Positions 7,302-43,211 of a stretch of 64,000 nt of DNA are shown here, in pieces. The stretch lies in NCBI GenBank assembly GCA_963831545.1, contig CAWHQX010000011.1, positions 143,206 to 207,205 on the forward strand, read 5' to 3'. The notes beneath the pieces are model-generated. The model saw only the letters and a program-made list of their open reading frames with translations, did no database searches and was not told where the DNA came from. Made by a program: the position numbers and the translations under genes. The stretch comes from an uncultured Acidobacteriota bacterium (lineage in GTDB: Bacteria; Acidobacteriota; Terriglobia; Acidiferrales; UBA7541). Position 1 is the first letter of the stretch, and every line of letters begins with the position of its first letter.

Positions 7302-7465
7302 AGTCCCAGTCCCGCAATTTTGCCGCTGGACATTAGGACTCGGGGAGGCGTTGGGGGCAATGGAGACTCTCCGAGTCCGGCTGTCTGTTCGAGGTCAGCG
7401 GTGTTGCGCCGACTGCTCCCGTGTGACCAGTGCCTAACCTTTTAGACGCGGGCACGTATCTGAAC

Positions 7466-7485
7466 AACTGGGGAAATCCCTAGGG
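7466..7485. promoter_or_regulatory. Island palindrome box 1 (AACTGGGG-AAAT-CCCTAGGG)
   Basis: Member of the repeated dyad. TAAAAG on the minus strand at 7444-7439 faces the AI-2E gene. Confidence 0.75.
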
Positions 7486-7569
7486 AGCCGCTCCGAGATG
7501 TTTGGTTGCCAGCCTCCGATGTCAGTAAAACGCGTTCACCGAAAACTTGGGACGGGAAGCTGTTTGCCG

Positions 7570-7589
7570 CGCTAGGGAAATCCCTAGTT
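7570..7589. promoter_or_regulatory. Island palindrome box 2 (CGCTAGGG-AAAT-CCCTAGTT)
   Basis: TAGACT at 7611-7616 faces the SYLF/YSC84 gene. Confidence 0.8.
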
Positions 7590-7693
7590 TCCCCAAGATG
7601 TTGTGCGAAGTAGACTCTCGGTGTCGGTCCGCCCAAAGCAAAGTTAGAAAGTGCACAGCAACGGTGTTGGTGCGCTTTAGGAGGAAGATTCCA

Positions 7694-8257
7694 ATGAAAT
7701 TGAAGATAATCGGCTGGGTGCTCGCGGTGGCTTTACTGTCGGCAATCGGAACCAGCGCTAAGGATGACAACGACGAAAAAAAGGAAAAATCCCGCAAGAT
7801 GGCTGCCCAGACTCTGCAGGATTTGTATAAACTCGATCCCCCAGCTCAGGCGGCTATCCAGAAGTCGGCCGGGTACGCAATTTTTAGCAACACGGGCGTC
7901 AATCTGTTGCTCAGCACGGCCCGCGGCTCGGGAATCGCCACGAACTCCAAAACCAAACAGGAAACTTTCATGAAGATGGTTTCGGCCGGGGCGGGTCTGG
8001 GCGTCGGCGTGAAGGACTATCGCGTAGTCTTCGTGTTCGAGAATGATAAGGCGTTCACTCAATTTCTCGATTCCGGTTGGTCCGGTTCGGCGCAAACGGA
8101 TGCTGCCGCTAAGGCCGGAGACAAAGGTGGAGCCTATTCGGGGGCGGTCGAGGTTGCCCCGGGTGTCTGGGTCTATCAGATCACGAAGAATGGCCTCGCG
8201 CTTCAATTGACCTTGCAGGGCACGAAATACTACAAGGACGACGACCTCAATAAGTAG
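7694..8257 (+). CDS. Secreted YSC84/SYLF-domain lipid-binding protein
   Basis: Signal peptide MKLKIIGWVLAVALLSAIG; motifs AGYAIF, GAGLGVGVKDYRVVFVF, GLALQLTLQGTKY; RBS GAGGA before ATG 7694. Confidence 0.8.
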   Translation: MKLKIIGWVLAVALLSAIGTSAKDDNDEKKEKSRKMAAQTLQDLYKLDPPAQAAIQKSAGYAIFSNTGVNLLLSTARGSGIATNSKTKQETFMKMVSAGAGLGVGVKDYRVVFVFENDKAFTQFLDSGWSGSAQTDAAAKAGDKGGAYSGAVEVAPGVWVYQITKNGLALQLTLQGTKYYKDDDLNK

Positions 8258-8342
8258 TCGAGCATCAAGATGCGAGACGGGGTCCACAAGCTCAGTCCGT
8301 TAGCTAATCTGTGTCTGCGGACTCAATCGAGGACGGTACGAG

Positions 8343-8558
8343 GTGGCTCCGATGCAGGACGAGGGCGAAATCGATCAGAGGGCCTCAGACGCTGAGCTGA
8401 TGGTGATAGTGCGTCGAGCGCAGGAAGAGCTTGAGGCCCACGGCGAATCGAATCAAGTAAATCTGCTCTTGCGTGACTTTGCGAGGGCACTTCTGAAACA
8501 ACGTTTGCTACTAAAGGTGGAGTTCGTTCGGATGATCGAACTGAGTCGGCGGAAGTAG
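8343..8558 (+). CDS. Small hypothetical helical protein
   Basis: 71-aa ORF with plausible composition lying between same-strand genes; no family recognised. Confidence 0.35.
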   Translation: MAPMQDEGEIDQRASDAELMVIVRRAQEELEAHGESNQVNLLLRDFARALLKQRLLLKVEFVRMIELSRRK

Positions 8559-8613
8559 AGCGCAATGGACAATCAGGGGAAACTTGGTCGAATTCGACAA
8601 AGGAGAGCAGAAT

Positions 8614-9420
8614 ATGAAGTCAAGTAACAGTTGGATGAGAAGCGGCCTCGTGCTCGCTATGGCGACAGTCTGTATTGCCTTCGCTTGGAGCGCCGGGGCA
8701 CAAGTACAGACCACAAAGACTACGACTGTCGGCCAGAGCAGCCAGGTAGTCAAAGTCGATCGCGGCGAGGTTCTGGCGGTGGAAGGCAACGATTTGATGG
8801 TGAGAATGGCAGATGGCTCGATCCGTCACTTTGAGAACATCCCCGAGAGCGCCAAGGCTACAGTTGACGGAAAACAGATGGGAATTCACGACTTGAAACC
8901 GGGCATGAAGCTGCAGCGCACCATAACCACAACAACCACTCCTCAGATCGTTACCACTGTCGAGACAGTGAAGGGAAAGGTCTGGCATGTCACTGCGCCA
9001 CTCTCGGTGATCTTGACGCTGGAAAACGGAACGAATCAATCGTTCAAGATTCCGAAAGATCAGAAATTCAAGGTGAATGGAGAAATGGTTGACGCCTTCG
9101 GCCTGAGGAAGGGGATGGTGGTAACAGCGACGAAAATCGTGGAGGTTCCGTTTTCGGTCACGTCACAGGAGAAGAGTGTAAGCGGCACGATGCCGGCACC
9201 CCCGCTAGCCCTGCCAGCTCCGCCAACCGACACTGTTTTACTGATTGCCGAGGGAGAGCCCACGGCTGCTCCACCGGAGGCCGCGGAAACGCCCGCTGTC
9301 CCTATACAAACGAACCCGACGACGACGGGAAGCTACCTTCCAGCCATTGGTCTGGGTGTGTTGCTGCTGATTATTGTTTTGGCCCTGGCAAAACTCGGAC
9401 GCCGGAAGTCCCGAACTTAG
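8614..9420 (+). CDS. Exported beta-rich protein with C-terminal sorting-signal-like anchor; paralog of 25974-26768
   Basis: Signal peptide; core near-identical to the LPKTG protein (GEV..V.GNDL.VRM.DG.IRHF...GKVWHVT.P.SVILTLEN.TNQSFKIP); Pro-rich linker, NPTTTG, hydrophobic helix, RRKSRT tail. Confidence 0.85.
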   Translation: MKSSNSWMRSGLVLAMATVCIAFAWSAGAQVQTTKTTTVGQSSQVVKVDRGEVLAVEGNDLMVRMADGSIRHFENIPESAKATVDGKQMGIHDLKPGMKLQRTITTTTTPQIVTTVETVKGKVWHVTAPLSVILTLENGTNQSFKIPKDQKFKVNGEMVDAFGLRKGMVVTATKIVEVPFSVTSQEKSVSGTMPAPPLALPAPPTDTVLLIAEGEPTAAPPEAAETPAVPIQTNPTTTGSYLPAIGLGVLLLIIVLALAKLGRRKSRT

Positions 9421-9430
9421 AATGCTTCGA

Positions 9431-9460
9431 GGAGGAGCCCAGTCAACGACAGGCTCCTCC
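9431..9460. terminator. Probable intrinsic terminator between convergent genes
   Basis: GGAGGAGCC...GGCTCCTCC 9-bp stem followed by AGTTTTG. Confidence 0.6.
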
Positions 9461-9487
9461 AGTTTTGTTCGGATTTGGAGCAGTCGT

Positions 9488-11440: not shown

Positions 11441-11565
11441 TACGCCCTATCCGGCTTCGGAGGTCAATCTGCACCACCAACCTCCCAACAATATACGAAA
11501 ACGCCCGATCTTCTTCGCCAAGTGTTTCCGTGGAACAGGCACGCGCTTGACGACTTTCGCACCTC

Positions 11566-12140: not shown

Positions 12141-13430
12141 TCAGGCGGCGGCAGCTCGCCTTCTGGGTGCGCATTCACGCTCGTTGCGAAATCGGAATAA
12201 ATGTCGAAACGGGACAAAGTTGGCGACGAACATATACTCTGTGAGTCGCAAGCTCCCGTCCAAACGTCTAATCTGACATTCACCTTGCTTCTCTGCTCGG
12301 CTTATGAAAGGCAAACCATTTCCCTCGAGGGTCCGACTTTGACCCAAAAGAAAGGCATCAATGGTGAAGTGCCTGATGTTTGTCTCCGAAACTCCGAACA
12401 AATGCAAGGCTCTCTGATTTGCGGCAACAAATCGGCGGTCTGCGTTCGTCAAAACGATTGCGTCGACCGAGCTGGCCATTAACTCTTGCAAGTCACTCTC
12501 CCTCGCGCGACGTGCTTCCTGTAGCTTCCTGGTTTCCTCCCTGGCATTCTTCCAACGTCCTGTGAGCGTGTTGAGTGTCCGCCGCAGATGTACCGTCATA
12601 TGCTGCAAAGTGACGAAGAGTTGCGACCCGAATTTGCTGATTTTGTGACTCGTGACAGCGATCGCATCAAGGGAGCCTGCGAATACCTTCCGCAGGTCAC
12701 TTGCGCGATAGGATTCCTGCAGTCTCCGAGTTTTCTCCGGGAGAGTCTTCCCCCATTCAGCGAGCCCGTTCAGTGCCCGCCGAACACGCGCGGACACTTG
12801 CTCCAAAGCGGCAACGAGTTGCGGCCTGAATTTGGTAATTTTGTGAGTTGTCACAGCAATTGCATCGAGTGAGCCTGCGAATATCTTCCGCAAGTCGCTT
12901 GTGCGATATGATTCCTGGAGTCTTCGAGTTTTCTCGGGGACAGTCTTCCCCCATTCACCGAGCCTGTTCAGTGCCCGCCGAACATGCGCGGGCACTTGCT
13001 CCAAAGCGGCAACGAGTTGCGGCCTGAATTTGGTAATTTTTTGAGTTGTCACAGCAATTGCATCAAGTGAGCCTGTGAATATCTTCCGCAAGTCGCTTGT
13101 GCGATATGATTCCTGTAGTCTTCGAGTTTTCTCGGGGACAGTCTTCCCCCATTCACCGAGCCTGTTCAGTGCCCGCCGAACATGCGCGGGCACGTGCTCC
13201 AAAGCGGCAACGAGTTGCGGCCTGAATTTGGTAATTTTTTGAGTTGTCACAGCAATTGCATCAAGTGAGCCTGTGAATATCTTCCGCAAGTCGCTTGTGC
13301 GATATGATTCCTGGAGTCTTCGAGTTTTCTCGGGGACAGTCTTCCCCCATTCAGCGAGCCCTTTCAGTGCCCGCCGGACATTTACCGTCACTTGTTCGAA
13401 GAGTTGCGAACTGAATTTGGTGATTTTCAT
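12141..13430 (-). CDS. PAS-domain protein with an N-terminal array of 66-aa tandem repeats and no output domain
   Basis: C-terminus SDLQELMASSVDAIVLTNADRRFVAANQRALHLFG...GECQIRRLDGS is PAS-like; it is preceded by 4 repeats plus a diverged fifth. Confidence 0.8.
   Translation of the reverse strand: MKITKFSSQLFEQVTVNVRRALKGLAEWGKTVPEKTRRLQESYRTSDLRKIFTGSLDAIAVTTQKITKFRPQLVAALEHVPAHVRRALNRLGEWGKTVPEKTRRLQESYRTSDLRKIFTGSLDAIAVTTQKITKFRPQLVAALEQVPAHVRRALNRLGEWGKTVPEKTRRLQESYRTSDLRKIFAGSLDAIAVTTHKITKFRPQLVAALEQVSARVRRALNGLAEWGKTLPEKTRRLQESYRASDLRKVFAGSLDAIAVTSHKISKFGSQLFVTLQHMTVHLRRTLNTLTGRWKNAREETRKLQEARRARESDLQELMASSVDAIVLTNADRRFVAANQRALHLFGVSETNIRHFTIDAFLLGQSRTLEGNGLPFISRAEKQGECQIRRLDGSLRLTEYMFVANFVPFRHLFRFRNERECAPRRRAAAA
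12460..13427. repeat. 198-bp in-frame tandem repeat, about 5 units, no spacers
   Basis: The segment G(T/C)GCGATA(T/G)GATTCC recurs at 12703, 12901, 13099 and 13297, an exact 198-bp period. Confidence 0.95.
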
Positions 13431-13531
13431 GGCACAGCCTCGGCAAAACTCGACCTAAATCTCAGAAGTTCAGCATTCAATTCTTCTCCAGAGCAAGCAT
13501 GTTCCGCTCTCACTTGTTAAGGGCGCGAGTC

Positions 13532-14021
13532 TTAGCTGCCAGCCAGCCACTTGTTCAGGAGAACCTTAACCTCAACGCGTCGGTTTCCTGTGCGTCCGGC
13601 AGCAGACTCGTTGGAGGCTACGGGAGCCACTTCTCCCATAGCGCCAAGCGCCACGATGTGCCGAACCGGAACGTTGCAGTTCTGGAGCAAATATGCAATT
13701 ACGTTTTGCGCGCGCTCCATGCTCAGTTTCTGGTTCATTGCCGCGTCGCCGCTGGAATCGGCATAGCCCTTCACTCGAATGATATAGCCCTAAACGTCGA
13801 CGGCATCGTGGGCCAACTTTTTCAGGCTTCCTGATCCGTTGGGGAAATCTTGGGGCTGCCGCTAGCAAAGTGGACAACCAATTTGTACGATCGTATCGCC
13901 GGTGCGGCGGTGATCAGCCCCTTGACGTTTGTCTCGTCATCACATGCGCCTAAGCGACCATTAATGCCACAAAACAGGCGGTCCACAGGCCTACAAGGAT
14001 TCTCATTCGCTTGCTTTGCAT
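13532..14021 (-). pseudogene. Degraded OmpA-family protein (internal deletion, stops, frameshifts)
   Basis: RBS plus MQSKRMRILVGLW signal peptide interrupted by TAG; LKKLAHDAVDV*GYIIRVKGYADSSG...LSMERAQNV...GRTGNRRVEVKV is an OmpA C-terminal domain. Confidence 0.75.
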
Positions 14022-14193
14022 AAAGCCGTTCCCTCCCTTTAATCTCGGATCAGGACAGAAACTAGACCTGCATGGTCTACCAGGTATTTCCGCGCGTTGG
14101 GCAAGAACAACAATTCAGAAGAGAACGTGGACCAGCAGGCCACGCGCAACCCATCGAACAGCATCATTTATAAATACCGGCGGGAAGTAGCTC

Positions 14194-14213
14194 TACTAGG
14201 GGAATCCCTAGTT
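14194..14213. promoter_or_regulatory. Island palindrome box 3 (TACTAGGG-GAAT-CCCTAGTT)
   Basis: TATAAA on the minus strand at 14172-14167 faces the OmpA pseudogene and PAS-repeat gene. Confidence 0.8.
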
Positions 14214-14395: not shown

Positions 14396-14415
14396 GACTA
14401 GGGATTTCCCTAGGT
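14396..14415. promoter_or_regulatory. Island palindrome box 4 (GACTAGGG-ATTT-CCCTAGGT)
   Basis: TATCAT at 14438-14443, upstream of response regulator 1. Confidence 0.8.
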
Positions 14416-14485
14416 GGCGCGGGAGAGAAGATGTGGATATCATCTGGTGCTGACATTCGCTGACCGCCCAGGAAGGCCACGCATC

Positions 14486-15175
14486 ATGGGGGATGTGTCC
14501 GCGAAGTATTTGCGTCCGCACGTACTGGTTGCGGATGACCATGCAATGTTTGCTGAAGCGTTGCGCGTTTATTTGGGAAAGACTTATACGGTTGTCGGGG
14601 TGGTGCTCGACGGTCGTGCGATGGTAGAGGCAGCTGTTCGGCTCAAGCCTGACTTGATTATTGTGGATGTCGGGATGCCGCTGCTGAACGGCTTGGATGC
14701 GGCCCGAAGAGTTCGAGTGCAAGTTCCAAGCGTCAGATTCATCTTCTTGACCATGCAGGATGATCCAAATCTTGCCGCGGCTGCTCTTGAACTAGGGACA
14801 ATTGCTTTTGTCCTCAAACATTCAGCTGGACCAGAACTGCTGAAGGCCATTGAACAGGTGCTAAGCGGCCGGCCCTACTTGACTCCCAAAGTGCGGTCCG
14901 TGGATTGGGTCCAAACCAAAGCTAGGGCCAGTCATTTCTCAAAGGAAATGACTCCGCGACAAACAGATGTCGTTCAAATGCTGGCCGAGGGACGGCCCAT
15001 GAAGGAGATCGCTGGGCTTCTGGAGTTGAGCGAAAAGACTGTGGAATTCCACAAACACCACATCATGGACGTTTTCAACCTCAAAAGTAATGCTGATGTG
15101 GTTTTGTTTGCTTTGAAGCGCGGCCTCATCTCCATGAATATTGAGCCCGAGCATCGCGCGCGCACCAGAGGATAA
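14486..15175 (+). CDS. NarL/FixJ-family response regulator (REC + LuxR HTH), copy 1
   Basis: VLVADDH, IIVDVGMP, FVLK; HTH TPRQTDVVQMLAEGRPMKEIAGLLELSEKTVEFHKHHIM. Confidence 0.95.
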   Translation: MGDVSAKYLRPHVLVADDHAMFAEALRVYLGKTYTVVGVVLDGRAMVEAAVRLKPDLIIVDVGMPLLNGLDAARRVRVQVPSVRFIFLTMQDDPNLAAAALELGTIAFVLKHSAGPELLKAIEQVLSGRPYLTPKVRSVDWVQTKARASHFSKEMTPRQTDVVQMLAEGRPMKEIAGLLELSEKTVEFHKHHIMDVFNLKSNADVVLFALKRGLISMNIEPEHRARTRG

Positions 15176-15523: not shown

Positions 15524-17395
15524 GTGACGGCTCAAGTCGAGCACAGCTTGGCGGGTGAACCTAGCCGCCCCGGTTGGCAGCATTCTGGCTATGGCCAGAG
15601 CGGGAGATCAGGAGCGGTAAGGTTCGCCCTGCTTCTGCTCCTCGTCGCTTTTCTGTTTCCGCAATCGATCGTGGCGCAACGAACGAAGTCTGTCCGGCGA
15701 GTCCTCATTTTCAATGATTTTGGTTCCATTTCGTCGCCCGGGATCGCGATTCTAGATCAGGCCATCGCGGCTGGCCTAGCGAGTTCTCCATACCAGATCG
15801 AACTCTACAACGAGAGTCTTGAGGCAACCTTGTTTCCTGATGAGCCTTCCCAGCACAGCTTCCGTGAATGGTTCATTCGCAAATACGCAGACCGCAAACC
15901 GGATGTAATCATTACCGTCGGACCTGCGTCTCTGAAGTTCATGGTCGAGGCGCATCAGACGTCATTTCCAAATATTCCAATCGTCTTTTGCGGCAGTACG
16001 AAGGAAATGCTGGACCAGCTGAAGCCAGACTCTTACTTTACCGGTGTTTGGGGAGTGGCACAGCCAGAAAAGACATTGATCGCGGCGTTGCACTTGCAAC
16101 CCGACACCAAGCACGTGGTTGTCGTGGGTGGTACTGGGGCGTTTGACCGGCGCCTCGAGGCCATCACCAAGGAAAGTTTGCGCAAGTACGAGTCGCAGTT
16201 CGAGTTCACATACCTCACGGACCTTACGATGCCTGCGCTCCTTGAACGACTAAGGCGGTTGCCGAGCGAGACGATTGTCTATCACACGTCCCTTATGGAG
16301 GACGCCGCGGGGACACACTTTATTGACGCAACCCAGGCCGCTCCTATGGTAGCAAGTGCCGCGAATGCACCTGTCTTTGCAATGGATGACGTCGATGTCG
16401 GTAATGGAACGGTGGGGGGCGACGTGGTGAGTTGGGCAGCGGGCGGTAAAATAGCTGCTGGGATGGTGTTGAGGATTCTCGACGGCGCGAAGCCGCAGGA
16501 AATTCCCATCGTCGGGAACGACAACGTCTATCTGTTCGATTGGCGAGCTCTGCGTCGGTGGGGACTCAAGGAAAGTGCCCTTCCACCCGGAAGCGTCGTG
16601 ATTTTCCGCGAATACTCCGTATGGGAACGCACCAAATGGATTTGGATCAGTGGGCTGCTGATGATCCTCAGTCTAGCCCTCCTTGCCGTCTATCTTCAGT
16701 TCAGTCGAAGACAACTCAAGCAGGCGAGAGAGTTTCAGTTGCAGCTAAGCGGCCTTTTGATCAACGCACAGGAAATGGAACGGAGACGATTGGCGTCGGA
16801 GCTCCATGATGATTTCAGCCAGCGCGTGGCCCTGCTCGCATTGGGATTGGAAAATGCCTCGGAGGCGCTACCTGATTCTTCAGAAGCTACCAAGCGACAG
16901 CTGCACGAGCTTTTTGATTCAGCTAGCGAGCTTGGTGCCGATCTACACACCGTATCCCATCGTTTGCATCCCTCCGTCCTTGAGAGCCTGGGACTTGCCC
17001 CAGGGGTAGACGCTTTATGTAAGGAATTCAGTGCCCGGCAGGACATTCGGGTTGATTTTTCTTCCGAGAATATTCCTCATGTCGTGCCTCCCAACGTAGC
17101 TCTGTGTTTATTCCGTATTGTCCAGGAGGGCCTTCAGAATTTAAGGAAGCATAGTGGAGCTTCGCAGGCCCAGGTAAGCTTGCGTAAGGACGGGGACAGA
17201 TTGCGTCTCTCCGTATGTGATAAAGGTAAAGGTTTCGATACGAAGGAGGTGAGAAATAAAGTGGGCCTGGGAATACCAAGCATGGGAGAACGTGTACGAC
17301 TGCTTGGTGGGCAATTCGAGATTCAATCGGAACCCGGGAAAGGGACCAAAATCGAGGTGTGTATGCCGCTTCCAACAAACGGGATTATCAGCTGA
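15524..17395 (+). CDS. Sensor histidine kinase (periplasmic substrate-binding-protein-like domain, 1 TM, HisKA_3, HATPase_c), copy 1
   Basis: ERRRLASELHDDFSQ H-box, QEGLQNLRKH N-box, DKGKGFD and GLGIPSM G-boxes. Confidence 0.93.
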   Translation: MTAQVEHSLAGEPSRPGWQHSGYGQSGRSGAVRFALLLLLVAFLFPQSIVAQRTKSVRRVLIFNDFGSISSPGIAILDQAIAAGLASSPYQIELYNESLEATLFPDEPSQHSFREWFIRKYADRKPDVIITVGPASLKFMVEAHQTSFPNIPIVFCGSTKEMLDQLKPDSYFTGVWGVAQPEKTLIAALHLQPDTKHVVVVGGTGAFDRRLEAITKESLRKYESQFEFTYLTDLTMPALLERLRRLPSETIVYHTSLMEDAAGTHFIDATQAAPMVASAANAPVFAMDDVDVGNGTVGGDVVSWAAGGKIAAGMVLRILDGAKPQEIPIVGNDNVYLFDWRALRRWGLKESALPPGSVVIFREYSVWERTKWIWISGLLMILSLALLAVYLQFSRRQLKQAREFQLQLSGLLINAQEMERRRLASELHDDFSQRVALLALGLENASEALPDSSEATKRQLHELFDSASELGADLHTVSHRLHPSVLESLGLAPGVDALCKEFSARQDIRVDFSSENIPHVVPPNVALCLFRIVQEGLQNLRKHSGASQAQVSLRKDGDRLRLSVCDKGKGFDTKEVRNKVGLGIPSMGERVRLLGGQFEIQSEPGKGTKIEVCMPLPTNGIIS

Positions 17396-17454: not shown

Positions 17455-17474
17455 GGTTAGGGTTTTCCCTAGTT
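17455..17474. promoter_or_regulatory. Island palindrome box 5 (GGTTAGGG-TTTT-CCCTAGTT)
   Basis: TAGAAT at 17496-17501, upstream of the lipoprotein-DASS operon. Confidence 0.8.
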
Positions 17475-17614
17475 GAGCGCACGTCAGATCGAACCTAGAA
17501 TTTGTGTGAACCAAACAGGCTAATGGCCTTGAACACTGAGGTCCAGCCAGTCAGGGTCGTCGCGTTTTCCACCGGACACACGTCGGGGCCACGGTCTGAT
17601 TCTAAGGAGATGCG

Positions 17615-21344: not shown

Positions 21345-21388
21345 ACAATGCCCGTTGCTGAATTTAGCAAAGCGAACCTGCTGGCTTC

Positions 21389-21408
21389 ACCTAGGGATTT
21401 GCCTAGTG
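21389..21408. promoter_or_regulatory. Island palindrome box 6 (ACCTAGGG-ATTT-GCCTAGTG)
   Basis: Lies between divergent sulP-like and kinase 2 genes; TAAATT on the minus strand at 21366-21361. Confidence 0.75.
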
Positions 21409-21656
21409 GCAGCTTAGACCTCCGCGAGGCAAAAGCTGAATGGAACGAGGCTATGCTATGCAGGTCCTGGGACTCATAGAGAGAATTTCGGAGCTTTTGT
21501 TTGGGGTCGGAACGGTCGGTTCGTAAGCCGTGGGCTAGCAGACTCGGCGATTCCTTTCCAAATCCATTTCTTGCAGCTTATTTCCTTGAGCGCAGTGGCT
21601 TTTGCGCATAGACTTACGATATAAATCCAGCCTAGGACTGAGTTCGAACTTCGGAG

Positions 21657-23537
21657 GTGCCGGTTAGCCTGCGCTTGCGCCGGTATCGGGAGATGGTCCT
21701 GGAAAATGTTTCGCTCTCCGGGCAAGGCAATCAGCTTCCGAGAGCATTGCTTGCGTCTGGCTGGGCTTCGCTGCTGACTCTCGTCGTCTTATTCGGGAGC
21801 GGCCAAACCTCGGCTCAAGCGCCTCTGAAAAGAAATGTGCTGATTCTCAGCGACGTGGGTTTGTCGCATTCCCTCACTGCGGAATTTACCCGGGACATTG
21901 TCGCAGAGGTGCGGGATACGCCAGCGCGACATGTCGAGTTTTACTCTGAGAGTCTCGATCTGCAGGCCTTTCCAGGCGGACCTTCGCGAGATGATTCCGA
22001 AGACTGGCTTGCCAAGAAATATGGCGAACATAAATTGGACGCAGTCGTAGCGATTGGTCCGGGCACAATTGATTTTCTCTCCAATGATACCGAGGACCTG
22101 TTCCAAAATGCGCCCATTGTGATTTGCGGGAGTTCCGCGGATCAAGCCAGTAATCCAAAACTCGATGCCAGATTCACAGGAACGTGGGTCCAGCTTAAAC
22201 CAGAAAGAACACTTGAACTGGCTCTGCAGCTTTTCCCAGATACACGTCACGTGTTTGTGGTGGGAGGTAGTTCCGACTTTGACAAAGCAGTGATGTCGTT
22301 GACAAAAAAGGCGCTGGGTTCGGTCAAGCCGACGCCGGAAATTGTCTATCTGACCGGCATGGAAATGAATGGTTTACTGGAACGGCTGCGGAATCTGCCG
22401 GACCACTCCATCGAGTTCTATACTTCATTCTTTCAGGATTCGGCCGGGAATAGATTTCTCAATGCAACTAAAGCCCTTCCGATGATCGCGGCAGCCTCCA
22501 ACGGCCCGGATTTCGGCATGTCTGATGGGTATCTGGGAAATGGGATTGTTGGCGGATACGTTTTGCCCTTTGAAAAACAAGCGAGGATGACAGCCCAAAT
22601 TGTCGGGGAACTACTGGACGGGAAACAAGTCCAGGCAATTCCGATCAAGACTCTTTCCAGTGAGTACGAGTTCGACTGGCGTGAACTCAAGCATTGGCAT
22701 ATCACGGAAGCCAGCCTTCCACTGGGAAGCGTGATCATGTTTCGAGAGCGTGGTCTCTGGGAGCGCACCAAGTGGGCTTGGATCACATCGCTTCTGATCA
22801 TCGCGGCTCTCTCCTCCATTACCTTTTACCTGCAAAGCAGCCGAAAGCAGCTAACGCTGGCCAAGGAAAAGCAGATGCAGCTCAGCGGTCTGCTGATCAA
22901 CGCAGAGGAGAAGGAACGAAGCCGGGTGGCATCCGAACTTCACGATGACTTTAGCCAGAGGCTGGCGTTACTGGCCCTGGGTTTGGAGAGTGTTGACGAA
23001 GCCACGCCCGCTTCTTTAGAGCACGTTCATAAGCAATTGCAGGAGCTTGCCAGGTCCACAAGCGAGCTTGGTTCTGATCTGCACACCCTATCGCATCGGT
23101 TGCATTCGTCCACGCTCGAGAGCCTGGGTCTTGTTCCGGCTGTCGACGCTTTATGCAGAGAATTCACTTGCAAGCAAGGCATCAGGGTCGACTTTTTATG
23201 CGATGAAATTCCGCGATCAATCAATCCCGACGCAGCCCTTTGTATCTTCCGCATCGTTCAAGAATCACTGCGGAACGTGAAGAAGTACAGTGGTGTGGAG
23301 GAGGCGGAGGTGGACCTGCGAATGACGGGCGACAGATTAGAGATTCGCGTGAGGGACAAAGGACGCGGATTCAGTTTGTCGGAACTCGGCCAGAATGGGG
23401 GTCTCGGTATCCGGAGCATGGAACAACGCGCGCGGCTGTTGGGTGGAAATTTTGAGATTCACTCTGAGCTCGGAAAGGGTACGAGAGTCGAGGCCTGGGT
23501 GCTGCTCAAACCCGTAGTACGGCATACGACGGCCTAG
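21657..23537 (+). CDS. Sensor histidine kinase (SBP-like sensor, HisKA_3, HATPase_c), copy 2; start may be downstream
   Basis: ERSRVASELHDDFSQ; collinear paralog of 15524-17395. Confidence 0.93.
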   Translation: MPVSLRLRRYREMVLENVSLSGQGNQLPRALLASGWASLLTLVVLFGSGQTSAQAPLKRNVLILSDVGLSHSLTAEFTRDIVAEVRDTPARHVEFYSESLDLQAFPGGPSRDDSEDWLAKKYGEHKLDAVVAIGPGTIDFLSNDTEDLFQNAPIVICGSSADQASNPKLDARFTGTWVQLKPERTLELALQLFPDTRHVFVVGGSSDFDKAVMSLTKKALGSVKPTPEIVYLTGMEMNGLLERLRNLPDHSIEFYTSFFQDSAGNRFLNATKALPMIAAASNGPDFGMSDGYLGNGIVGGYVLPFEKQARMTAQIVGELLDGKQVQAIPIKTLSSEYEFDWRELKHWHITEASLPLGSVIMFRERGLWERTKWAWITSLLIIAALSSITFYLQSSRKQLTLAKEKQMQLSGLLINAEEKERSRVASELHDDFSQRLALLALGLESVDEATPASLEHVHKQLQELARSTSELGSDLHTLSHRLHSSTLESLGLVPAVDALCREFTCKQGIRVDFLCDEIPRSINPDAALCIFRIVQESLRNVKKYSGVEEAEVDLRMTGDRLEIRVRDKGRGFSLSELGQNGGLGIRSMEQRARLLGGNFEIHSELGKGTRVEAWVLLKPVVRHTTA

Positions 23538-23715: not shown

Positions 23716-24414
23716 ATGGAAAACGTTTTAATAGACAGATCTCGACCAAAGTTCCTGATCGCCGATGACCATGCGATGTTCGCGGAGGCTTTGAGAGTTT
23801 TTCTGGAGCGAACATACCCAGTTGTCGGGTTGGTGTCCGACGGCCGCGCCTTGATTGAAGCAGCCTCACGACTTAAGCCTGAAATCATTATCGTCGATGT
23901 GGCCATGCCCATCCTGAATGGCCTAGATGCGGCGCGCAGAATTAAGGAGCAGTCTGCCAAGATCAAGTTCATCTTCCTGACGATGCAAGAGGATCCAAAT
24001 CTGGCTGCAGCGGCGCTGGAACTGGGCCCGATCGGGTTCGTGCTGAAGCACACGCCTGGGTCGGAACTATTGAAGGCGATTGATCATGTACTGCATGGAA
24101 AGCCCTATGTGACTGCCAAGCTGAGGGCGGAGGATTGGGTCACAACGAAGGCGCGGGCGCGACAGTTCGCTACGGAATTGACGGCACGGCAGCGCGATAT
24201 CGTGCAGTTGTTTGCCGAAGGGCGGCCCATGAAGGAAATCGCTGGATTGCTGAACCTAAGCGAAAAGACGGTGGAATTCCACAAGCATCACATTATGGAA
24301 GCGTTCAACGTTAAGAATAATGCCGATCTGATATTGTTCGCTTTGAAACATGGACTTATCTCGATCGATCCCGAGCCCTCTGTGCCGGCACGCGCGGGCC
24401 ACAACGGGCGATAA
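23716..24414 (+). CDS. NarL/FixJ-family response regulator, copy 2
   Basis: IADDH, IIVDVAMP; HTH AEGRPMKEIAGLLNLSEKTVEFHKHHIM. Confidence 0.95.
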   Translation: MENVLIDRSRPKFLIADDHAMFAEALRVFLERTYPVVGLVSDGRALIEAASRLKPEIIIVDVAMPILNGLDAARRIKEQSAKIKFIFLTMQEDPNLAAAALELGPIGFVLKHTPGSELLKAIDHVLHGKPYVTAKLRAEDWVTTKARARQFATELTARQRDIVQLFAEGRPMKEIAGLLNLSEKTVEFHKHHIMEAFNVKNNADLILFALKHGLISIDPEPSVPARAGHNGR

Positions 24415-24440: not shown

Positions 24441-24460
24441 GACTAGGGATTTCCCCAGTG
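24441..24460. promoter_or_regulatory. Island palindrome box 7 (GACTAGGG-ATTT-CCCCAGTG)
   Basis: TAACAT at 24482-24487, upstream of the receiver-only protein. Confidence 0.75.
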
Positions 24461-24569
24461 GCGAAGTCCGTTCCCACCACCTAACATCCGATTCTGGTTT
24501 GGTACCATCGCATCGTGGGACGCTGACGTGGCGGACCCACCGTGCGCGATTGTTGGATGGAGGCGAACA

Positions 24570-24965
24570 TTGATTCGCCCACGCGTGCTCCTGGCCGATG
24601 ACCATCTCGAATTCCTGGAAGCGGAAATCGCTTTGCTGCGACCTCATTTTGAACTGGTGGGCACGGTGAGCGATGGAGTTTCGCTTATATCTGAGGCCGC
24701 GCGGCTCAGTCCGGACGTTGTGGTGGTTGACGTCACCATGCCGTTTATGAACGGCATCGACGCGGTCCGCAAACTCGTCGAGTCCGGCTGCACTACCAAG
24801 TTTGTATTTCTGACGATTAATACTGGCGCGGAGTTCGTTAAAGCATGCCAGCAAGCAGGAGCTCGGGGCTATGTCTGGAAAAGCCGAATGAACGCCCATC
24901 TGATTCCAGCGATTTACGCGGCCCTCAAAGGCCTTCCGTATATTTCTCCGTTAACTTCCTCGTGA
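24570..24965 (+). CDS. Single-domain (receiver-only) response regulator
   Basis: VLLADDH, VVVDVTMP, GYVWK; ends without an HTH. GGAGG precedes TTG 24570. Confidence 0.85.
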   Translation: MIRPRVLLADDHLEFLEAEIALLRPHFELVGTVSDGVSLISEAARLSPDVVVVDVTMPFMNGIDAVRKLVESGCTTKFVFLTINTGAEFVKACQQAGARGYVWKSRMNAHLIPAIYAALKGLPYISPLTSS

Positions 24966-25064: not shown

Positions 25065-25084
25065 GGTTAGGGATTTCCCTAGTT
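25065..25084. promoter_or_regulatory. Island palindrome box 8 (GGTTAGGG-ATTT-CCCTAGTT)
   Basis: TAAAAG at 25107-25112, upstream of the sortase. Confidence 0.8.
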
Positions 25085-25163
25085 GTCGGTGCTATTTGGA
25101 AAAGCCTAAAAGGGTAGGCAGCGAATTCACTTCGCGAAAACAGCGGGAATACGCTACCGGTCC

Positions 25164-25910
25164 TTGCGGAAGGCTTCCGAAATGGTGCGGGGCAACATAA
25201 TGAACGCGCTCAGCGGCTTTGAACGGCTCCTGCTGTTCCTGGGATTGCTGCTGCTCTCGGTGTACGCCGTCGGCCGCATTTATAGTTCGCTCTACTCTCA
25301 TCTCGCCGTGCACGAATTCTGGGGTTCGCATGGCTCCTCGAGCACAGTCAACCCCGCCGGCGCATCCCAGCAGAATCACGGAATTCCGGATTTTCACTTG
25401 TGGTCGGTAAAACGGATTGAGGCCTACCACATGAGCTTAGTCGCAAGCGTCCCGCCTCCCCTAGGCGTTCTAAGAATTCCTTCGGTTGATCTGGAAGTGC
25501 CGGTGCTCGAAGGAACCGACGACCTGATGCTGAATCGCGGGGTGGGACACATCGATGGCACCAGCGCCCTCGATGAGGGAGGTAACGTTGGTATTGCCGG
25601 ACACCGCGATGGATTTTTTCGAGGGCTTAAGGACGTTCATGTTGGCGACACGATGGATGTGTATAGCGAAAAGGGAAATTTGCGTTATGTTGTAGATGAG
25701 ATTGTTGTTGTTCCGCCAGAGGACGTTTCTGTCCTGGCGCCGCGATCCAAACCCACTCTAACTCTTGTAACCTGCTATCCCTTTTATTTTGTGGGCAGTG
25801 CTCCGCTGCGTTACATCGTTCACGCCTCGATCACAGATGTGAACAGTCTCTCGGCTTCTGATCAGCCACACACTCTGGTTAAGGAGGGAGGAGGCCGAGT
25901 CAAAAAATGA
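25164..25910 (+). CDS. Class D sortase (alternative start ATG 25200)
   Basis: N-terminal TM; catalytic-triad motifs GIAGHRD, LTLVTCYPF, PLRYIV. Confidence 0.93.
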   Translation: MRKASEMVRGNIMNALSGFERLLLFLGLLLLSVYAVGRIYSSLYSHLAVHEFWGSHGSSSTVNPAGASQQNHGIPDFHLWSVKRIEAYHMSLVASVPPPLGVLRIPSVDLEVPVLEGTDDLMLNRGVGHIDGTSALDEGGNVGIAGHRDGFFRGLKDVHVGDTMDVYSEKGNLRYVVDEIVVVPPEDVSVLAPRSKPTLTLVTCYPFYFVGSAPLRYIVHASITDVNSLSASDQPHTLVKEGGGRVKK

Positions 25911-25973
25911 ATTGCTCTGGAAGTGGACGGCGCGGTTCGAGAAATTACCCTATTTCAATAGTGGAGGAAACAA

Positions 25974-26768
25974 ATGAAGTCAGGCAATTGTCCAAAAACA
26001 GTACTGGTATTGTTGTTGGGAACACTCTGTTTCGCGTTGGCGATTTCGACCAATGCGCAAATACAAACCGAAAAGTCCGCGACGGTAGGGCGGACGACTA
26101 TGCAAGTTCAGATCGAACGTGGAGAAGTTGTGCTTGTGGACGGCAACGACCTCGTCGTCAGGATGGAGGATGGCACCATTCGGCACTTCCCCAATGTGTC
26201 GGAAAGCGCCAAGGTCACCGTGGATGGCAAGGAACTCGGTATTCATGACTTGAAGCCGGGCATGAAACTCCAGCGAAGCATCATTACCGCGTCCACTCCC
26301 CAAACCATCACGACCGTCCAGACAGTCACCGGTAAAGTGTGGCATGTGACCCCGCCAAACTCGGTGATCCTGACACTGGAAAACAACACCAACCAGTCAT
26401 TCAAGATTCCCGAGGGACAGAAGTTTAATGTGAATGGCGAGATGGTCGATGCATTTGGCTTGAAAAAGGGAATGATTGTCACCGCCACCAAAATCGTTGA
26501 GGTTCCCGAGGTCGTAGTGTCTCAACATAAGCATGTAATCGGAACCATGCCTGCGCCACCATCTGCTCCTCCAGCTGACGTTCCTATGTTGATTGCAAGG
26601 GCAGAACCCACGCCGGCGCCAGAAACTGCAGAAGCCTCTGCGGCCCCGGCTCCAACGAAGACACTGCCGAAAACTGGGAGCGAACTGCCTCTGCTCGGGC
26701 TGCTTGGGCTTCTTTGCCTAACGGCCTCACTCGGAGTCAAGTTCCTCCGCGCAAATATCAGCGTTTAG
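25974..26768 (+). CDS. LPXTG-anchored exported protein, probable sortase substrate
   Basis: Signal peptide, Pro/Ala linker, LPKTG + hydrophobic helix + K/R tail; directly downstream of the sortase. Confidence 0.9.
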   Translation: MKSGNCPKTVLVLLLGTLCFALAISTNAQIQTEKSATVGRTTMQVQIERGEVVLVDGNDLVVRMEDGTIRHFPNVSESAKVTVDGKELGIHDLKPGMKLQRSIITASTPQTITTVQTVTGKVWHVTPPNSVILTLENNTNQSFKIPEGQKFNVNGEMVDAFGLKKGMIVTATKIVEVPEVVVSQHKHVIGTMPAPPSAPPADVPMLIARAEPTPAPETAEASAAPAPTKTLPKTGSELPLLGLLGLLCLTASLGVKFLRANISV

Positions 26769-29840: not shown

Positions 29841-29860
29841 TACTAGGGTTTTCCCTAGTT
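29841..29860. promoter_or_regulatory. Island palindrome box 9 (TACTAGGG-TTTT-CCCTAGTT)
   Basis: Upstream of the RND operon. Rightward hexamer is weak (CAGAGT at 29882); leftward TAGGAT at 29818-29813. Confidence 0.8.
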
Positions 29861-30077
29861 GTTGCCATTTCCTGGATTAGACAGAGTGTGCGTGACAGAC
29901 CATTTGTTGCCGGCGCATTGATCGAGCAGTGCGAATAATCGGGGACTCCGATCGCTCGACGCGTATCTCCAGTCGGGCGCACCTGCGCCGGAAAACACCG
30001 ATTCTCGAACCGAGAGGCCGTTCCGCGTTTTGGCGCGGTTGGTCTACGACGGCAGTCGAAGTCCGGAGGCCAAACGA

Positions 30078-37274: not shown

Positions 37275-37283
37275 CGTAGGGTA

Positions 37284-38573: not shown

Positions 38574-38826
38574 AAATGTTATCCTCTCTTCTTTCGGCTT
38601 TCGACCGATCCTTTCAGACGGAGCGTTGTCCGTAGTGCGTAGCCGTCTTCGTTATAGTTCGTGAGCCGGTGCATTTCCGAGACGAGTCCAGAGGACGGCC
38701 ACGGACCGAGAGCCGGCCCGGTACGTGCACCCCGAGACAGGCGATGCTCTTTGCCATTCCACGGTGACTTGAGGCGATTCCAGGACTTCAATACACGCAT
38801 CCTAAGGCAAAGAAGCTCTGGACGGC

Positions 38827-38846
38827 TACTGGGAAAACCCCTAGTT
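38827..38846. promoter_or_regulatory. Island palindrome box 10 (TACTGGGA-AAAC-CCCTAGTT)
   Basis: TAGGAT on the minus strand at 38804-38799 faces pfkA. Confidence 0.7.
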
Positions 38847-38878: not shown

Positions 38879-38898
38879 GATCAGGGATTTCCCTAGTT
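38879..38898. promoter_or_regulatory. Island palindrome box 11 (GATCAGGG-ATTT-CCCTAGTT)
   Basis: 52 bp from box 10, upstream of the BASS gene; no good -10 at the fixed spacing. Confidence 0.7.
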
Positions 38899-39083
38899 GC
38901 CGTCCGGACAGCTTTCTCGCAAAAGCAACAGTGAGAATAGCGATGAAGAAAATGGAGAGTCGGCAAAGCTGCGTTTACCTCAATTTTCGACCGTAGGCGG
39001 CCCTCATTGTCGAATTTCTACCGGATTGATAACTGGGCGTGCCTATCGAGGTGTGGTTTGGGTAACCTCGCTAGGAGAGCTGA

Positions 39084-39903: not shown

Positions 39904-40007
39904 TTTCTCTGTCGATGGGTCGATTCTCTTCAGTGCCTCAACCATTCTGAGGGCAAGAGAAAGCAATGTTTGCGACGATGCTTGCTTCGTAGAAGGAAAG
40001 TCAGCGA

Positions 40008-41273
40008 TTACTTCGGTCGCGAGGTTCCGAGCCCCTGCCGATCTTCTGCCGATGCATCCTGTTTGTCTTCCGGGTTGCCAAACGACCGCTCGATGATGGA
40101 CTGCAGCCGCTGCTGCCGATGCCGTAGAGCATGATGACGTTCTTCGGGCAGTACAGAGATCATCTCACTGATGAGGGCCCTCATTCGACGCATAACTTGC
40201 ACACTATTGGCACCATAGAAACAAATCTCATCGAATGCCAAGCGCAGGAAGTCCTCCCAGCTCGGAAAGGCAATGAGGACTCGGATGTTGTCGTCAGAGT
40301 CGCGAAAGGCGCCAATTTCTAAACGGCGTCGGCCCAGACGGAGCAAAAGATCTTCAATCTGGTCCAGTGCCTGTACCGCTGTGGTCGGATCATTAATCGC
40401 CGGAGACAGGGCTTTGATGGCGATGTCGACCAGCAATCGGATGGCATATTTAGGATCTTGCTCGAAAGTACGCTCGCCGCCTAGATCAATCGCACTCCTC
40501 AGCTGTGACTCAGCGATTCGGCCCCCTTCCCCAACAACCCGCAGAATCGGGGTCAAATCAAAGACAGAATCACCAACGGCGGCAGCGAATTCAATGACAC
40601 ATCCGGCCCTGCTGGCAATCTGCACCAGTGCCGGCACATCCAAAGCTTGGACGATCTCCGGATGGCCGTGATGCACAAGCGTCTGGACACTAGGAAAATG
40701 AGAGATTTCAGCAAAGCCTGAAGACGCAGGCGTATCTAATGGGGGATACAGATTCTCAATAACTTTGCGACCGTGATCACCCGTGAAGACCAACATCCTG
40801 GTAACCTGCAGCATACTCACACGTTGGATGAGACTAATAAACATGATGACGCTTACGATAAGCAGCGCGGTTACCACTACTATGCCGACTAACGGAACTC
40901 GGCCGGTGCCCCCACGGTCGACCCAAGCCAACGCAACCAGCGCGTAAAGAAATGTTGCAGTAAAAACACCGATCGCATGGGAGATCACGGGGTCACGGGC
41001 GATCCACAAAACAAGCCGCGGGGAGTAGGCTGTAGCACTGAATTGCACCATGACAAAGGTCAGAGAGAATACAATGCCCGTGAGGGCGAGCATACCGGAC
41101 GCAATGGAAGAGTAAATGCCGATTGCGGCGTTCGCGCTGACAGTGGAAGCGAAGCCTGGTAGGAGCACATTGGCCAGGCGGGCTACCGTCACGCCAGACG
41201 TAAGTGCCGCCGCCGCATAAACCAACGGAACAAGCCATGCCTTGGCCTGGGTCTTACGCAGCTTATGAAACAT
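40008..41273 (-). CDS. DUF2254-family membrane protein
   Basis: VQFSATAYSPRL, ERTFEQDPKYAIRLLVDIAIKALSPAINDPTTAVQALD. Confidence 0.9.
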   Translation of the reverse strand: MFHKLRKTQAKAWLVPLVYAAAALTSGVTVARLANVLLPGFASTVSANAAIGIYSSIASGMLALTGIVFSLTFVMVQFSATAYSPRLVLWIARDPVISHAIGVFTATFLYALVALAWVDRGGTGRVPLVGIVVVTALLIVSVIMFISLIQRVSMLQVTRMLVFTGDHGRKVIENLYPPLDTPASSGFAEISHFPSVQTLVHHGHPEIVQALDVPALVQIASRAGCVIEFAAAVGDSVFDLTPILRVVGEGGRIAESQLRSAIDLGGERTFEQDPKYAIRLLVDIAIKALSPAINDPTTAVQALDQIEDLLLRLGRRRLEIGAFRDSDDNIRVLIAFPSWEDFLRLAFDEICFYGANSVQVMRRMRALISEMISVLPEERHHALRHRQQRLQSIIERSFGNPEDKQDASAEDRQGLGTSRPK

Positions 41274-41294
41274 CGTCTCGCGAGCTCGCTCTTC

Positions 41295-42869
41295 TCATTC
41301 GGCCGATTGCGCCCTGACAAAGTTGTATTTTGCGCTGAACATAATCCGCGGCGCATTGCCCGTAGAGCCGTCTTTGTTTACTCGCCAGCCATAAAGGAAT
41401 TCCGTGCCCAAGGTCAATGAGCCGTAAGGATTCCAGATCAGGTTACCCGCCGCATAATTGCTTTGGTGAAATACGGAGCCGGGCTGGGCTTCGGTGTTTT
41501 GGACTTGGACAAAGCCGTATACCACGCTTGAGCGCAAGCCCTTAAGCCAGAAATGTTGCAAACCCGCGTAGGTTGCGAATACGGGCAGCGCTTTGAGTTC
41601 GGGATTCTGCAAGCTGGTGACCGCCGCGTCGATTCCCAAGCCAGACGTATCATTGATGTAGCGTTCGATGCCATTCCCGTAAGCTCCCTGATAAACGATG
41701 GTATTCTGCCTCCATAACTTTTCCGATCCCGCCAGATTGAAGCCCCACCCGAACACGGAGTCATGCCGGCCATCTGGCAGATACGCCGCTACATCTCGAA
41801 ACAATGCGGAAACCTGCACATGGCCGCCGTCCATTTCACGCCGCAGCTTCAAGGCTCCGTCAGGCGCAGGGCTGTTCGGTTGAGCACTGAAATCGGGGGT
41901 GGTGAATGCTACGTCCGAGTTGGGCTTCTCAACCGATAGGCTGAAGGTCGTCTTTTCTGCGACCAAAAGACTGTAACGAAATTGTGGGTTGCGAATGGAA
42001 ACCTGCGCGTTTGGGCCCTGGAAGTCGAGCTGGTCAGTCCCCGCGTCAGGATCCATGAAGTTAGAGAAGGTCTGGCCGATCAGGAAATTCTTTGCTTGTC
42101 CGTAAGCATGGCGCAATCTTGGAGTGGTTGCGTTGGAACCGAAAAGATCCGCTTCAACGAAGAATCTGATCGATTCGCCTGACTTCAGCGGAACCAGGAA
42201 GTCAAGATTGATGCGCGTCGGTCGTACCGATATGGTCGTGTTCGTAAATGCGGCCGGAGCCGGAATTGGGATCGTGGCCGGAATGAAGCTATCGACATTT
42301 CCTGCCGGCTTCAAATCGTAGATAAAGTCAGTTTTGGCATAACCGCCTATCCGCAATAATGTGCTCGTACCTGGCAGCCGGAAATATCCCGGAAAACGCG
42401 GGTCCAGCGGTTCGTTATTGATGCGCGGGGCGGCCAGCGGATCCTGCGCAAAGGTGCGATAGGTCGAAGTTGTGTTGCTAATTTCCTCTTTTTTCGGAGT
42501 CAGTTCCGATTCCACTTGCGTCTTTTCTTCACTCTGCCATGTGGCAACAGCCGCCGCTGGAGCGGGTGCGGCTGCTGCAGTTGGAGCTTTGGCAGGAGCA
42601 CCCGAAATGCGCTTCAGTTCGCTCTGCACCTCTGCCATCTGGTTCTGCAGATTGTCCAGTTTCTTTTGAAGAGCCTCTATTTGGGACGGCGTCGCCTCTT
42701 GTCCTTGCGCGCGAGCTGATTGCGAGCCGGCGACGAAAAAGACTGCACAGAACAAACAAATTGAAGTTGTTTTACGGAGACGGATCTTTGTTCTCGCACC
42801 GCATCCAAGCGCAATTGCGGAGTTAAATGAAAAGCGAACGTTGGGGTAATACGCGTTCAGACAATTCAT
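41295..42869 (-). CDS. DcaP-family trimeric outer-membrane porin (start uncertain)
   Basis: N-terminal coiled coil (IEALQKKLDNLQNQMAEV), IGGYAKTD, RLRHAYG, LIGQTFSNFMD, C-terminal SAKYNF. Confidence 0.8.
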   Translation of the reverse strand: MNCLNAYYPNVRFSFNSAIALGCGARTKIRLRKTTSICLFCAVFFVAGSQSARAQGQEATPSQIEALQKKLDNLQNQMAEVQSELKRISGAPAKAPTAAAAPAPAAAVATWQSEEKTQVESELTPKKEEISNTTSTYRTFAQDPLAAPRINNEPLDPRFPGYFRLPGTSTLLRIGGYAKTDFIYDLKPAGNVDSFIPATIPIPAPAAFTNTTISVRPTRINLDFLVPLKSGESIRFFVEADLFGSNATTPRLRHAYGQAKNFLIGQTFSNFMDPDAGTDQLDFQGPNAQVSIRNPQFRYSLLVAEKTTFSLSVEKPNSDVAFTTPDFSAQPNSPAPDGALKLRREMDGGHVQVSALFRDVAAYLPDGRHDSVFGWGFNLAGSEKLWRQNTIVYQGAYGNGIERYINDTSGLGIDAAVTSLQNPELKALPVFATYAGLQHFWLKGLRSSVVYGFVQVQNTEAQPGSVFHQSNYAAGNLIWNPYGSLTLGTEFLYGWRVNKDGSTGNAPRIMFSAKYNFVRAQSAE

Positions 42870-43084
42870 ACAAGGACCTCTCTGAATCGCAGAGATACGT
42901 AAAAAACGAATTCCGTTGCGTTCCGACTGCGGAGATTCGGCAATTTGCTGCGGCTCCGAATGAAACAACGTTCTCTTGGCAGCATCTTTCGTAACCCGGC
43001 GAACCGGCAACCATGCGAAAGATCGATACTGCAAATTCTTTCGCCATTTGTATTTGCAGGGTAAGAGACAATTTCACGCGATGA

Positions 43085-43104
43085 AACTAGGGATTTCCCT
43101 AGTT
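43085..43104. promoter_or_regulatory. Island palindrome box 12, perfect arms (AACTAGGG-ATTT-CCCTAGTT)
   Basis: Lies between divergent porin and decarboxylase genes. TACCCT (minus, 43063-43058) and TAAATG (plus, 43126-43131) are both 31.5 bp from the centre. Confidence 0.85.
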
Positions 43105-43211
43105 GTTGCGGTTATTCAGCACTGCTAAATGTCTTCACAGACCCAAATTAAGGTCACAGCAAATCGAACACCGGTCATGCCAAACCAAGTGTGAATTGTC
43201 GGGAGGATCAT

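Follow-up and report, generated by a model that had tools for sequence, protein, structure and literature searches.

A 64,000-nucleotide stretch of contig CAWHQX010000011.1 from an uncultured Acidobacteriota bacterium (the window in what follows) holds a gene island in which one short DNA element stands repeatedly ahead of genes. The element, here called the box, is a 16-bp palindrome of two inverted heptamers around a 2-bp gap (7-2-7 layout, CTAGGGA / WW / TCCCTAG), followed in fixed register by sequences resembling the -35 and -10 hexamers of a promoter. It recurs in the same register in related genomes, together with genes of one NarL/LuxR-type response-regulator subfamily, of which the island encodes a pair. 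The box is probably the site at which dimers of these regulators activate the adjoining weak sigma70-type promoters.

The box and its register with promoter elements

A search of the window with the pattern CTAGGGAWWTCCCTAG, allowing up to 3 mismatches, finds 12 boxes, numbered here in the order of their starts (7468, 7572, 14196, 14398, 17457, 21391, 24443, 25067, 29843, 38829, 38881 and 43087). Chance alone would give 0.41, and the count of 12 was reached in none of 100 shuffled sequences. All boxes are intergenic and lie ahead of genes, and each has a 4-bp A/T tract at its centre. The whole genome (5.0 Mb) contains 16 sites with up to 2 mismatches, 11 of them inside the 36 kb of this island.

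Counted from the dyad, a hexamer starting with TA begins at base k = 32 or 33 (31.5 or 32.5 bp) next to 11 of the 12 boxes and reads TAnnnT at eight. No other pair of offsets between 9 and 80 has TA at more than 3 boxes or TAnnnT at more than 2. If the null is the rate of TA in these flanks (0.024 per position), the binomial probability is 5e-11 for at least 11 of 12 TA hexamers and 3e-13 for at least 8 of 12 TAnnnT. This spacing had been pointed out in a sequence-only reading of the same DNA. Its 12 boxes and 12 hexamers are all present, in place and on the right strand, when the flanks are laid out from the dyad; both of its counts were reproduced, and the enrichment of TAnnnT at these offsets held in the offset scan. 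It had also put the centre of the box near -43/-44, which agrees with the -43.5 or -44.5 obtained when the hexamer is taken as -12 to -7.

The same arrangement is found in relatives. A search with the regulator retrieved 79 loci in metagenome-assembled genomes of Acidobacteriota (67-92% identity), labelled Candidatus Acidoferrales, Acidobacteriaceae, Korobacteraceae and Sulfotelmatobacter. Their 1.59 Mb hold 309 distinct boxes with up to 2 mismatches, which form a phylogenetically related set. In the 618 flanks of these boxes TA starts 213 times at k = 32 and 80 times at k = 33, compared with about 18 times at each other offset; 260 of the 309 have TA at the offset on at least one side and 33 on both. 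Oriented toward the hexamer, the consensus is CTAGGGATTTCCCTAG, directly followed by T (0.89), T (0.69), G (0.92) and Y. The TTG occupies the -35 position, 17 bp before the hexamer in the k = 32 class and 18 bp before it in the k = 33 class. When sides are picked for TTG alone and the -10 is ignored, T (0.71) and A (0.76) still stand out at k = 32/33, with C instead of T at the first position of the hexamer in 15% of these sides. The related-locus alignment has no enrichment of an extended -10 (TGn) just upstream of the hexamer, and the relatives show a weak pyrimidine-then-purine composition signal at k = 43-46.

On this numbering the box is predicted to span about -51 to -36, with its dyad at -43.5 or -44.5, and to adjoin the -35 element without overlapping it. 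The core elements in the window are weak, with at most 4 of 6 consensus matches in the -35 and 3 to 5 of 6 in the -10, as expected of activator-dependent promoters.

The hexamer also predicts the direction of the gene. The side that carries it faces an open reading frame (ORF) of at least 150 aa, with its start within 350 nt, in 175 of 251 cases, compared with 90 of 271 for the other sides (P = 5e-17). The sequence-only reading had the hexamer facing an adjacent gene everywhere except at box 9; the facing bias stands and the exception falls away. The hexamer assigned to box 9, TAGGAT (29818-29813, minus strand), is present here and absent from the three closest orthologous loci, and is probably a chance match. 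On the plus side TTGTTG-N17-CAGAGT is kept in all three, and in more distant relatives a box precedes an RND membrane-fusion gene with TAGCAT or TAGGTT on the gene side. Because the plus side is the conserved one, box 9 most likely serves the RND operon, and no exception is left.

At the promoter downstream of regulator 2, orthologues in 48 genomes keep the box and TAnnnT (as TAACAT, TAGCAT, TATGAT, TAGTGT and others) over a spacer that is not conserved, a pattern that reads as a classical phylogenetic footprint. The register appears to be maintained by selection since the spacers vary freely, although the 309 boxes are phylogenetically related. The two halves of these boxes are equally conserved. 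Their centre is polar: on about 75% of promoter sides (window and loci together) the reading toward the promoter is ATTT, and among downstream-gene clusters the count for ATTT is 50 against 19. This polarity goes beyond what a symmetric dimer requires and may come from docking of the C-terminal domain of the polymerase alpha subunit (alpha-CTD).

Regulators, kinases and genomic distribution

Two paralogous two-component systems and a stand-alone receiver are encoded in the stretch. The regulators were assigned to their family by Pfam and PDB matches.

14486-15175, plus strand: response regulator 1, receiver and GerE/LuxR helix-turn-helix (HTH), NarL family; recognition helix SEKTVEFHKHHIM
15524-17395, plus strand: sensor kinase 1, ABC_sub_bind-type periplasmic domain, HisKA_3 and HATPase_c
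21657-23537, plus strand: sensor kinase 2, paralogue of kinase 1 with the same domain set
23716-24414, plus strand: response regulator 2, receiver and GerE/LuxR-HTH, 71% identical to regulator 1; recognition helix also SEKTVEFHKHHIM

The helix core SEKTVEFHKHH is near-invariant in the 79 regulator orthologues, even though identity over the whole protein falls as low as 67%. The NarL-type paralogues that come next in this genome have TKRTVAGHKYAVM in the recognition helix instead. NCBIfam has no equivalog for the regulators or the kinases; even the top-scoring models (MctR/MctS, NarL, UhpB) fall far short of cut-off, with the regulators scoring 96-98 bits against NarL, where the cut-off is 250. 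The island proteins that were scanned include no other transcription-factor domain and no sigma factor.

Boxes and regulator occur in the same genomes. Among 151 genomes of the same order, 10 have at least 3 boxes, 9 have a regulator orthologue (at least 290 bits; scores are bimodal, with the next matches at 212 bits or below) and 8 have both (Fisher P = 7e-11). A sample of 300 other genomes from across the phylum contains none with more than 2 boxes. Since clusters appear in few genomes of the order-level sample, including 7 of the 36 same-genus genomes when the present one is counted (at least 3 boxes), the island is an accessory, patchily distributed one. Three genomes of the same genus (G368, G385 and G389) carry 5-7 regulator orthologues each at the 290-bit cut-off, or 8-9 when weaker matches (E <= 1e-40) are included, and 7-13 boxes.

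The regulators' own genes belong to the set. Regulator and receiver genes are the commonest box-driven first genes in relatives (56 of 287 predicted), and boxes ahead of regulator genes imply autoregulation. The other box-driven first genes include DUF3300 (23), DcaP-like porin (21), sortase (16), SulP (15), Ysc84 (13 + 8), AI-2E (9), RND membrane-fusion protein (7), PAS protein (7), beta-carbonic anhydrase (7) and OmpA-type (6).

Promoter modules of the window

The modules are listed below; transcription start sites (TSSs) are predictions from the position of the hexamer.

7439-7483, minus strand: box 1 module; box 7468-7483, -35-like TTGTTC 7467-7462, -10 TAAAAG 7444-7439, predicted TSS ~7432; faces an AI-2E family transporter gene (ATG 7301); module identical in the related locus L026
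7572-7616, plus strand: box 2 module; box 7572-7587, TTTCCC 7588-7593, -10 TAGACT 7611-7616, predicted TSS ~7623; faces a Ysc84-family gene (ATG 7694)
14167-14211, minus strand: box 3 module; box 14196-14211, -10 TATAAA 14172-14167, predicted TSS ~14160; faces a decayed OmpA/DUF5666-type gene, frame broken ~13500 to 14030 (minus strand)
14398-14443, plus strand: box 4 module; box 14398-14413, -10 TATCAT 14438-14443 (18-bp spacer class), predicted TSS ~14450; faces the response regulator 1 gene and would be autoregulatory
17457-17501, plus strand: box 5 module; box 17457-17472, -35 TTGAGC 17473-17478, -10 TAGAAT 17496-17501, predicted TSS ~17508; faces a gene for a 190-aa unknown protein, then a DASS (Na/sulfate symporter family) transporter
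21361-21435, probably both directions: box 6, at 21391-21406; leftward -10 TAAATT 21366-21361, facing SulP/STAS (ATG 21344); rightward a weak CAAAAG at 21430-21435, facing the operon of kinase 2 and regulator 2
24443-24487, plus strand: box 7 module; box 24443-24458, -10 TAACAT 24482-24487, predicted TSS ~24494; faces the stand-alone receiver gene (24528-24965)
25067-25112, plus strand: box 8 module; box 25067-25082, -35 TTGTCG 25083-25088, -10 TAAAAG 25107-25112, predicted TSS ~25119; faces a sortase gene
29843-29887, plus strand: box 9 module, re-assigned; box 29843-29858, -35 TTGTTG 29859-29864, -10-like CAGAGT 29882-29887, predicted TSS ~29894; faces an RND efflux operon (membrane-fusion gene 30030/30078, pump, OMF)
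38799-38844, minus strand: box 10 module; box 38829-38844 (3 mismatches), -10 TAGGAT 38804-38799, predicted TSS ~38792; faces a phosphofructokinase-family gene (ATG 38573)
38881-38925, plus strand: box 11 module; box 38881-38896, -35 TTGCCG 38897-38902, CAAAAG 38920-38925, no TA hexamer; faces an SBF-family transporter gene
43058-43131, both directions: box 12, at 43087-43102, a perfect match; leftward -10 TACCCT 43063-43058, facing a DcaP-like porin; rightward TTGTTG 43103-43108 and -10 TAAATG 43126-43131, facing a decarboxylase/Asp-Al_Ex transporter operon

Box 6 is probably bidirectional: in related genomes TA hexamers lie on both of its sides, one toward SulP and one toward the kinase-regulator operon. 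The gene behind box 3 is probably a pseudogene: its signal peptide and its OmpA C-terminal part fall in different frames, stop codons intervene, and the L026 orthologue is intact (298 aa). The sequence of box 11 is TCAGGGATTTCCCTAG. The operon to the right of box 12 (43212-49513) encodes a 940-aa Orn/Lys/Arg decarboxylase, an aspartate 4-decarboxylase (801 bits, NCBIfam equivalog) and an Asp-Al_Ex transporter, which together suggest a decarboxylation module that consumes protons and stands under box 12.

Some further features were seen in and beside the island. The sortase gene and a gene for a 264-aa protein without Pfam match occupy 25164-26768, and the same genome encodes an outer-membrane OMF and a DcaP-like porin. 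In a PAS-domain protein gene (12141-13430, minus strand) the 5' part is made up of four tandem repeats of 198 bp that match the reference copy at 77-78% identity; PAS proteins similar to its product are box-driven in relatives. Downstream of the island lie adjacent tRNA-Asp(GTC) and tRNA-Val(TAC) genes (50280-50456, minus strand). An Rfam scan found only these two tRNAs, and no riboswitch or small RNA to account for the long leaders.

Proposed mechanism and alternatives

In the favoured explanation a dimer of the island's NarL/LuxR-type regulators, two paralogues with the same recognition helix, would bind CTAGGGA-WW-TCCCTAG. Each regulator would be paired with a kinase bearing a periplasmic sensor domain of the solute-binding type. 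With the order box, TTG of the -35, spacer of 17 or 18 bp and TAnnnT at each promoter, and the dyad at about -43.5 or -44.5, the phosphorylated regulator would recruit or stabilize RNA polymerase from that position and turn on the downstream gene. The presence of the regulators' own genes and the stand-alone receiver in the putative regulon suggests feedback. The other members would be anion and solute transporters, the porin, the RND pump, the sortase, DUF3300/DUF2950 proteins and amino-acid decarboxylases.

Several observations weigh against this explanation. Sequence alone does not separate activation from repression, and the -43.5 position rests on taking TAnnnT as the -10. About 16% of the relative boxes (49 of 309) lack TA at the offset, the preference for T at the last -10 position is weak (0.45 in the k = 32 class), and CA replaces TA at three window promoters (the rightward sides of boxes 6, 9 and 11). 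Two genomes, G411 and G416, have 3 boxes and no close regulator orthologue detected. Conversely, the regulator orthologues at loci L019, L020, L022 and L023 (~70-72% identity, same or nearly same helix) have no box within 10 kb, and no variant palindromes were found near them. These four may be orphan paralogues that act on boxes elsewhere in the genome.

The most serious competitor, which we nevertheless consider unlikely, takes the box as a repressor or dual-function operator: a regulator sitting at -51 to -36 would block alpha-CTD or region 4 of the sigma factor (sigma4), and the promoters would fire on its release. Steric interference is conceivable with a box that directly adjoins a -35-like TTG, and NarL-family regulators do repress at some promoters. 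However, the box keeps its register with the -10 to within 1 bp over hundreds of promoters and does not overlap the core elements, so that a stereospecific contact with polymerase fits better than occlusion. The core elements are moreover weak, and the known cases of the family at this very position activate. Slightly less probable still is that another DNA-binding protein reads the box and that the regulators co-occur with it merely as members of the same island. A Crp/FNR-type regulator gene does lie behind a box at some relative loci, and the four regulator orthologues without nearby boxes could be read the same way. Against this stand the 7-2-7 inverted repeat, which is the classic target of a NarL-type dimer, the prominence of regulator genes among the box-driven genes, a recognition helix that stays invariant as the protein around it diverges, and an island protein scan that turned up no other transcription-factor domain.

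The conserved block runs without a break from the box into TTG, and the downstream half of the palindrome together with TTG might accordingly be an extended -35 recognized by an alternative sigma factor. This is very improbable: the upstream half-site is conserved as much as the downstream one, which points to a dimeric protein and not a sigma domain, the TTG, the 17/18-bp spacer and TAnnnT have housekeeping-type geometry, and the island scan found no sigma-factor gene. The last alternative, in which the boxes are insertion scars or copies of a dispersed repeat (MITE/REP-like) that inherited the hexamer spacing from a common unit, is effectively refuted. Short flank similarities exist among a few copies (families D5, D7, D11 and D12), but the sequences that separate box from hexamer show no relation to one another, the letters of the hexamer differ while its position is fixed, and the boxes lie only upstream of genes in one island and not genome-wide. 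The sequence-only reading had likewise preferred regulatory sites to insertion scars, and the register in the 309 boxes of other genomes, together with the unrelated spacers and the restriction to the island, bears it out.

A wider version of the favoured explanation is possible, though we hold it to be doubtful as a whole. The box may be a single DNA code common to kinase/NarL-type regulator pairs that have expanded in Terriglobia, patchily and possibly by horizontal transfer, with docking of alpha-CTD guided by the polarity of the centre. With the recognition helix common to the 2 to about 9 paralogues of a genome, several sensors would act on a single set of promoters, and the stand-alone receiver, itself box-driven, would serve as a sink for phosphate. 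The polarity of the centre may orient alpha-CTD between the two regulator monomers, by analogy with the NarL complex. One perfectly placed dimer could in that case switch on either or both of a pair of divergent promoters with starts ~87 bp apart, as at boxes 6 and 12 and at the 33 two-sided boxes of the relatives.

Relation to known systems

The nearest precedent for the regulators acting from this position is E. coli NarL. A single 7-2-7 site at -43.5, just upstream of a weak -35, mediates activation at yeaR, and a 7-2-7 site at -44.5 does so at ogt; in the cryo-electron microscopy (cryo-EM) complex at -43.5 NarL contacts alpha-CTD, itself seated in the minor groove of the site's central part, and not sigma4 (PMC10853779, PMC7419079). 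The boxes share with yeaR and ogt the inverted heptamers with a 2-bp gap (16 bp in total), the weak adjoining -35 and the centre at -43.5/-44.5. They also share the A/T-rich centre of the NarL site, and the regulator is likewise a receiver with a GerE/LuxR-HTH served by a HisKA_3 kinase. One site per promoter suffices at yeaR, and single boxes are the rule here. The boxes are not members of a NarL/NarP regulon, as the heptamer is CTAGGGA here and the consensus there is TACYYMT. The recognition helix reads TVEFHKHHI compared with TVKVHVKHM in NarL, and of K174 and R178, which were mutated in the NarL study, only the lysine aligns with an identical residue. The periplasmic sensor is of the solute-binding-protein type, unlike NarX/NarQ, and the host is an acidobacterium with a regulon formed by an accessory island with many such promoters.

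DosR/DevR of Mycobacterium tuberculosis is a second NarL-family regulator with this geometry. At hspX its box is centred at ~-43.5 beside a suboptimal -35, and by cryo-EM it contacts sigma region 4, alpha-CTD and alpha's N-terminal domain (PMC13486717). Besides the family and the proximal box at ~-43.5 by a suboptimal -35, it resembles the island's regulators in having its own operon in the regulon. Dev boxes, however, are 18-20 bp long and at least two tandem boxes are needed at promoters of the regulon, whereas the boxes here measure 16 bp, are mostly single and have an unrelated sequence; where they are paired they serve divergent promoters. The RcsB box, TN(G/A)GAN4TC(T/C)NA, is a 14-bp pseudo-palindrome for a NarL-family dimer with the same T..A edges and RG/CY core. 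The central 14 bp of the present box, TAGGGAAATCCCTA, differ from it at two symmetric inner positions (G for A and C for T) and so do not make an RcsB box, and RcsB sites occur at many positions, also inside genes, whereas the boxes keep to one.

The sequence-only reading had called the arrangement class II, with the activator overlapping the -35 region and contacting region 4 of sigma70. A canonical class II activator (CRP/FNR, centred at -41.5) is indeed similar in that it sits beside polymerase at a promoter with a poor -35 and in strict helical register. That site overlaps and replaces the -35 and contacts sigma region 4, whereas the box ends at -36, is shifted by 2 bp and leaves TTG directly behind it. 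The boxes are thus not canonical class II sites, and the claim of overlap has to be given up. Contact with sigma70 region 4 is possible and not implied by the geometry; it is not a safe deduction because NarL at -43.5 touches alpha-CTD and not sigma4, whereas DosR touches both.

Significance

Acidobacteriota are a dominant and poorly tractable phylum of soil bacteria. To our knowledge hardly any transcription-factor sites or promoter architectures have been described in them, and a literature search on acidobacterial TSS or promoter studies found nothing relevant. A search for the motif string found no paper with the motif. With the motif in no paper found and no NCBIfam equivalog for the proteins, the island most likely represents a new regulon, with a new motif, of a well-known kind of system, in which a NarL-family regulator uses a palindrome centred at -43.5. 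It introduces no new principle; what it offers is an annotation resource and a clean system for studies of NarL-family activation. It supplies a precise operator-promoter module (box, TTG, 17/18-bp spacer, TAnnnT) with a candidate regulator, and it would place the -43.5 '7-2-7' geometry of NarL and DosR in use far outside Proteobacteria and Actinobacteria. It also yields a conserved list of targets comprising SulP, DASS, beta-carbonic anhydrase, decarboxylase/antiporter operons, porin, RND pump, sortase and DUF3300/DUF2950, which hints at a role in pH, anion or inorganic-carbon homeostasis.

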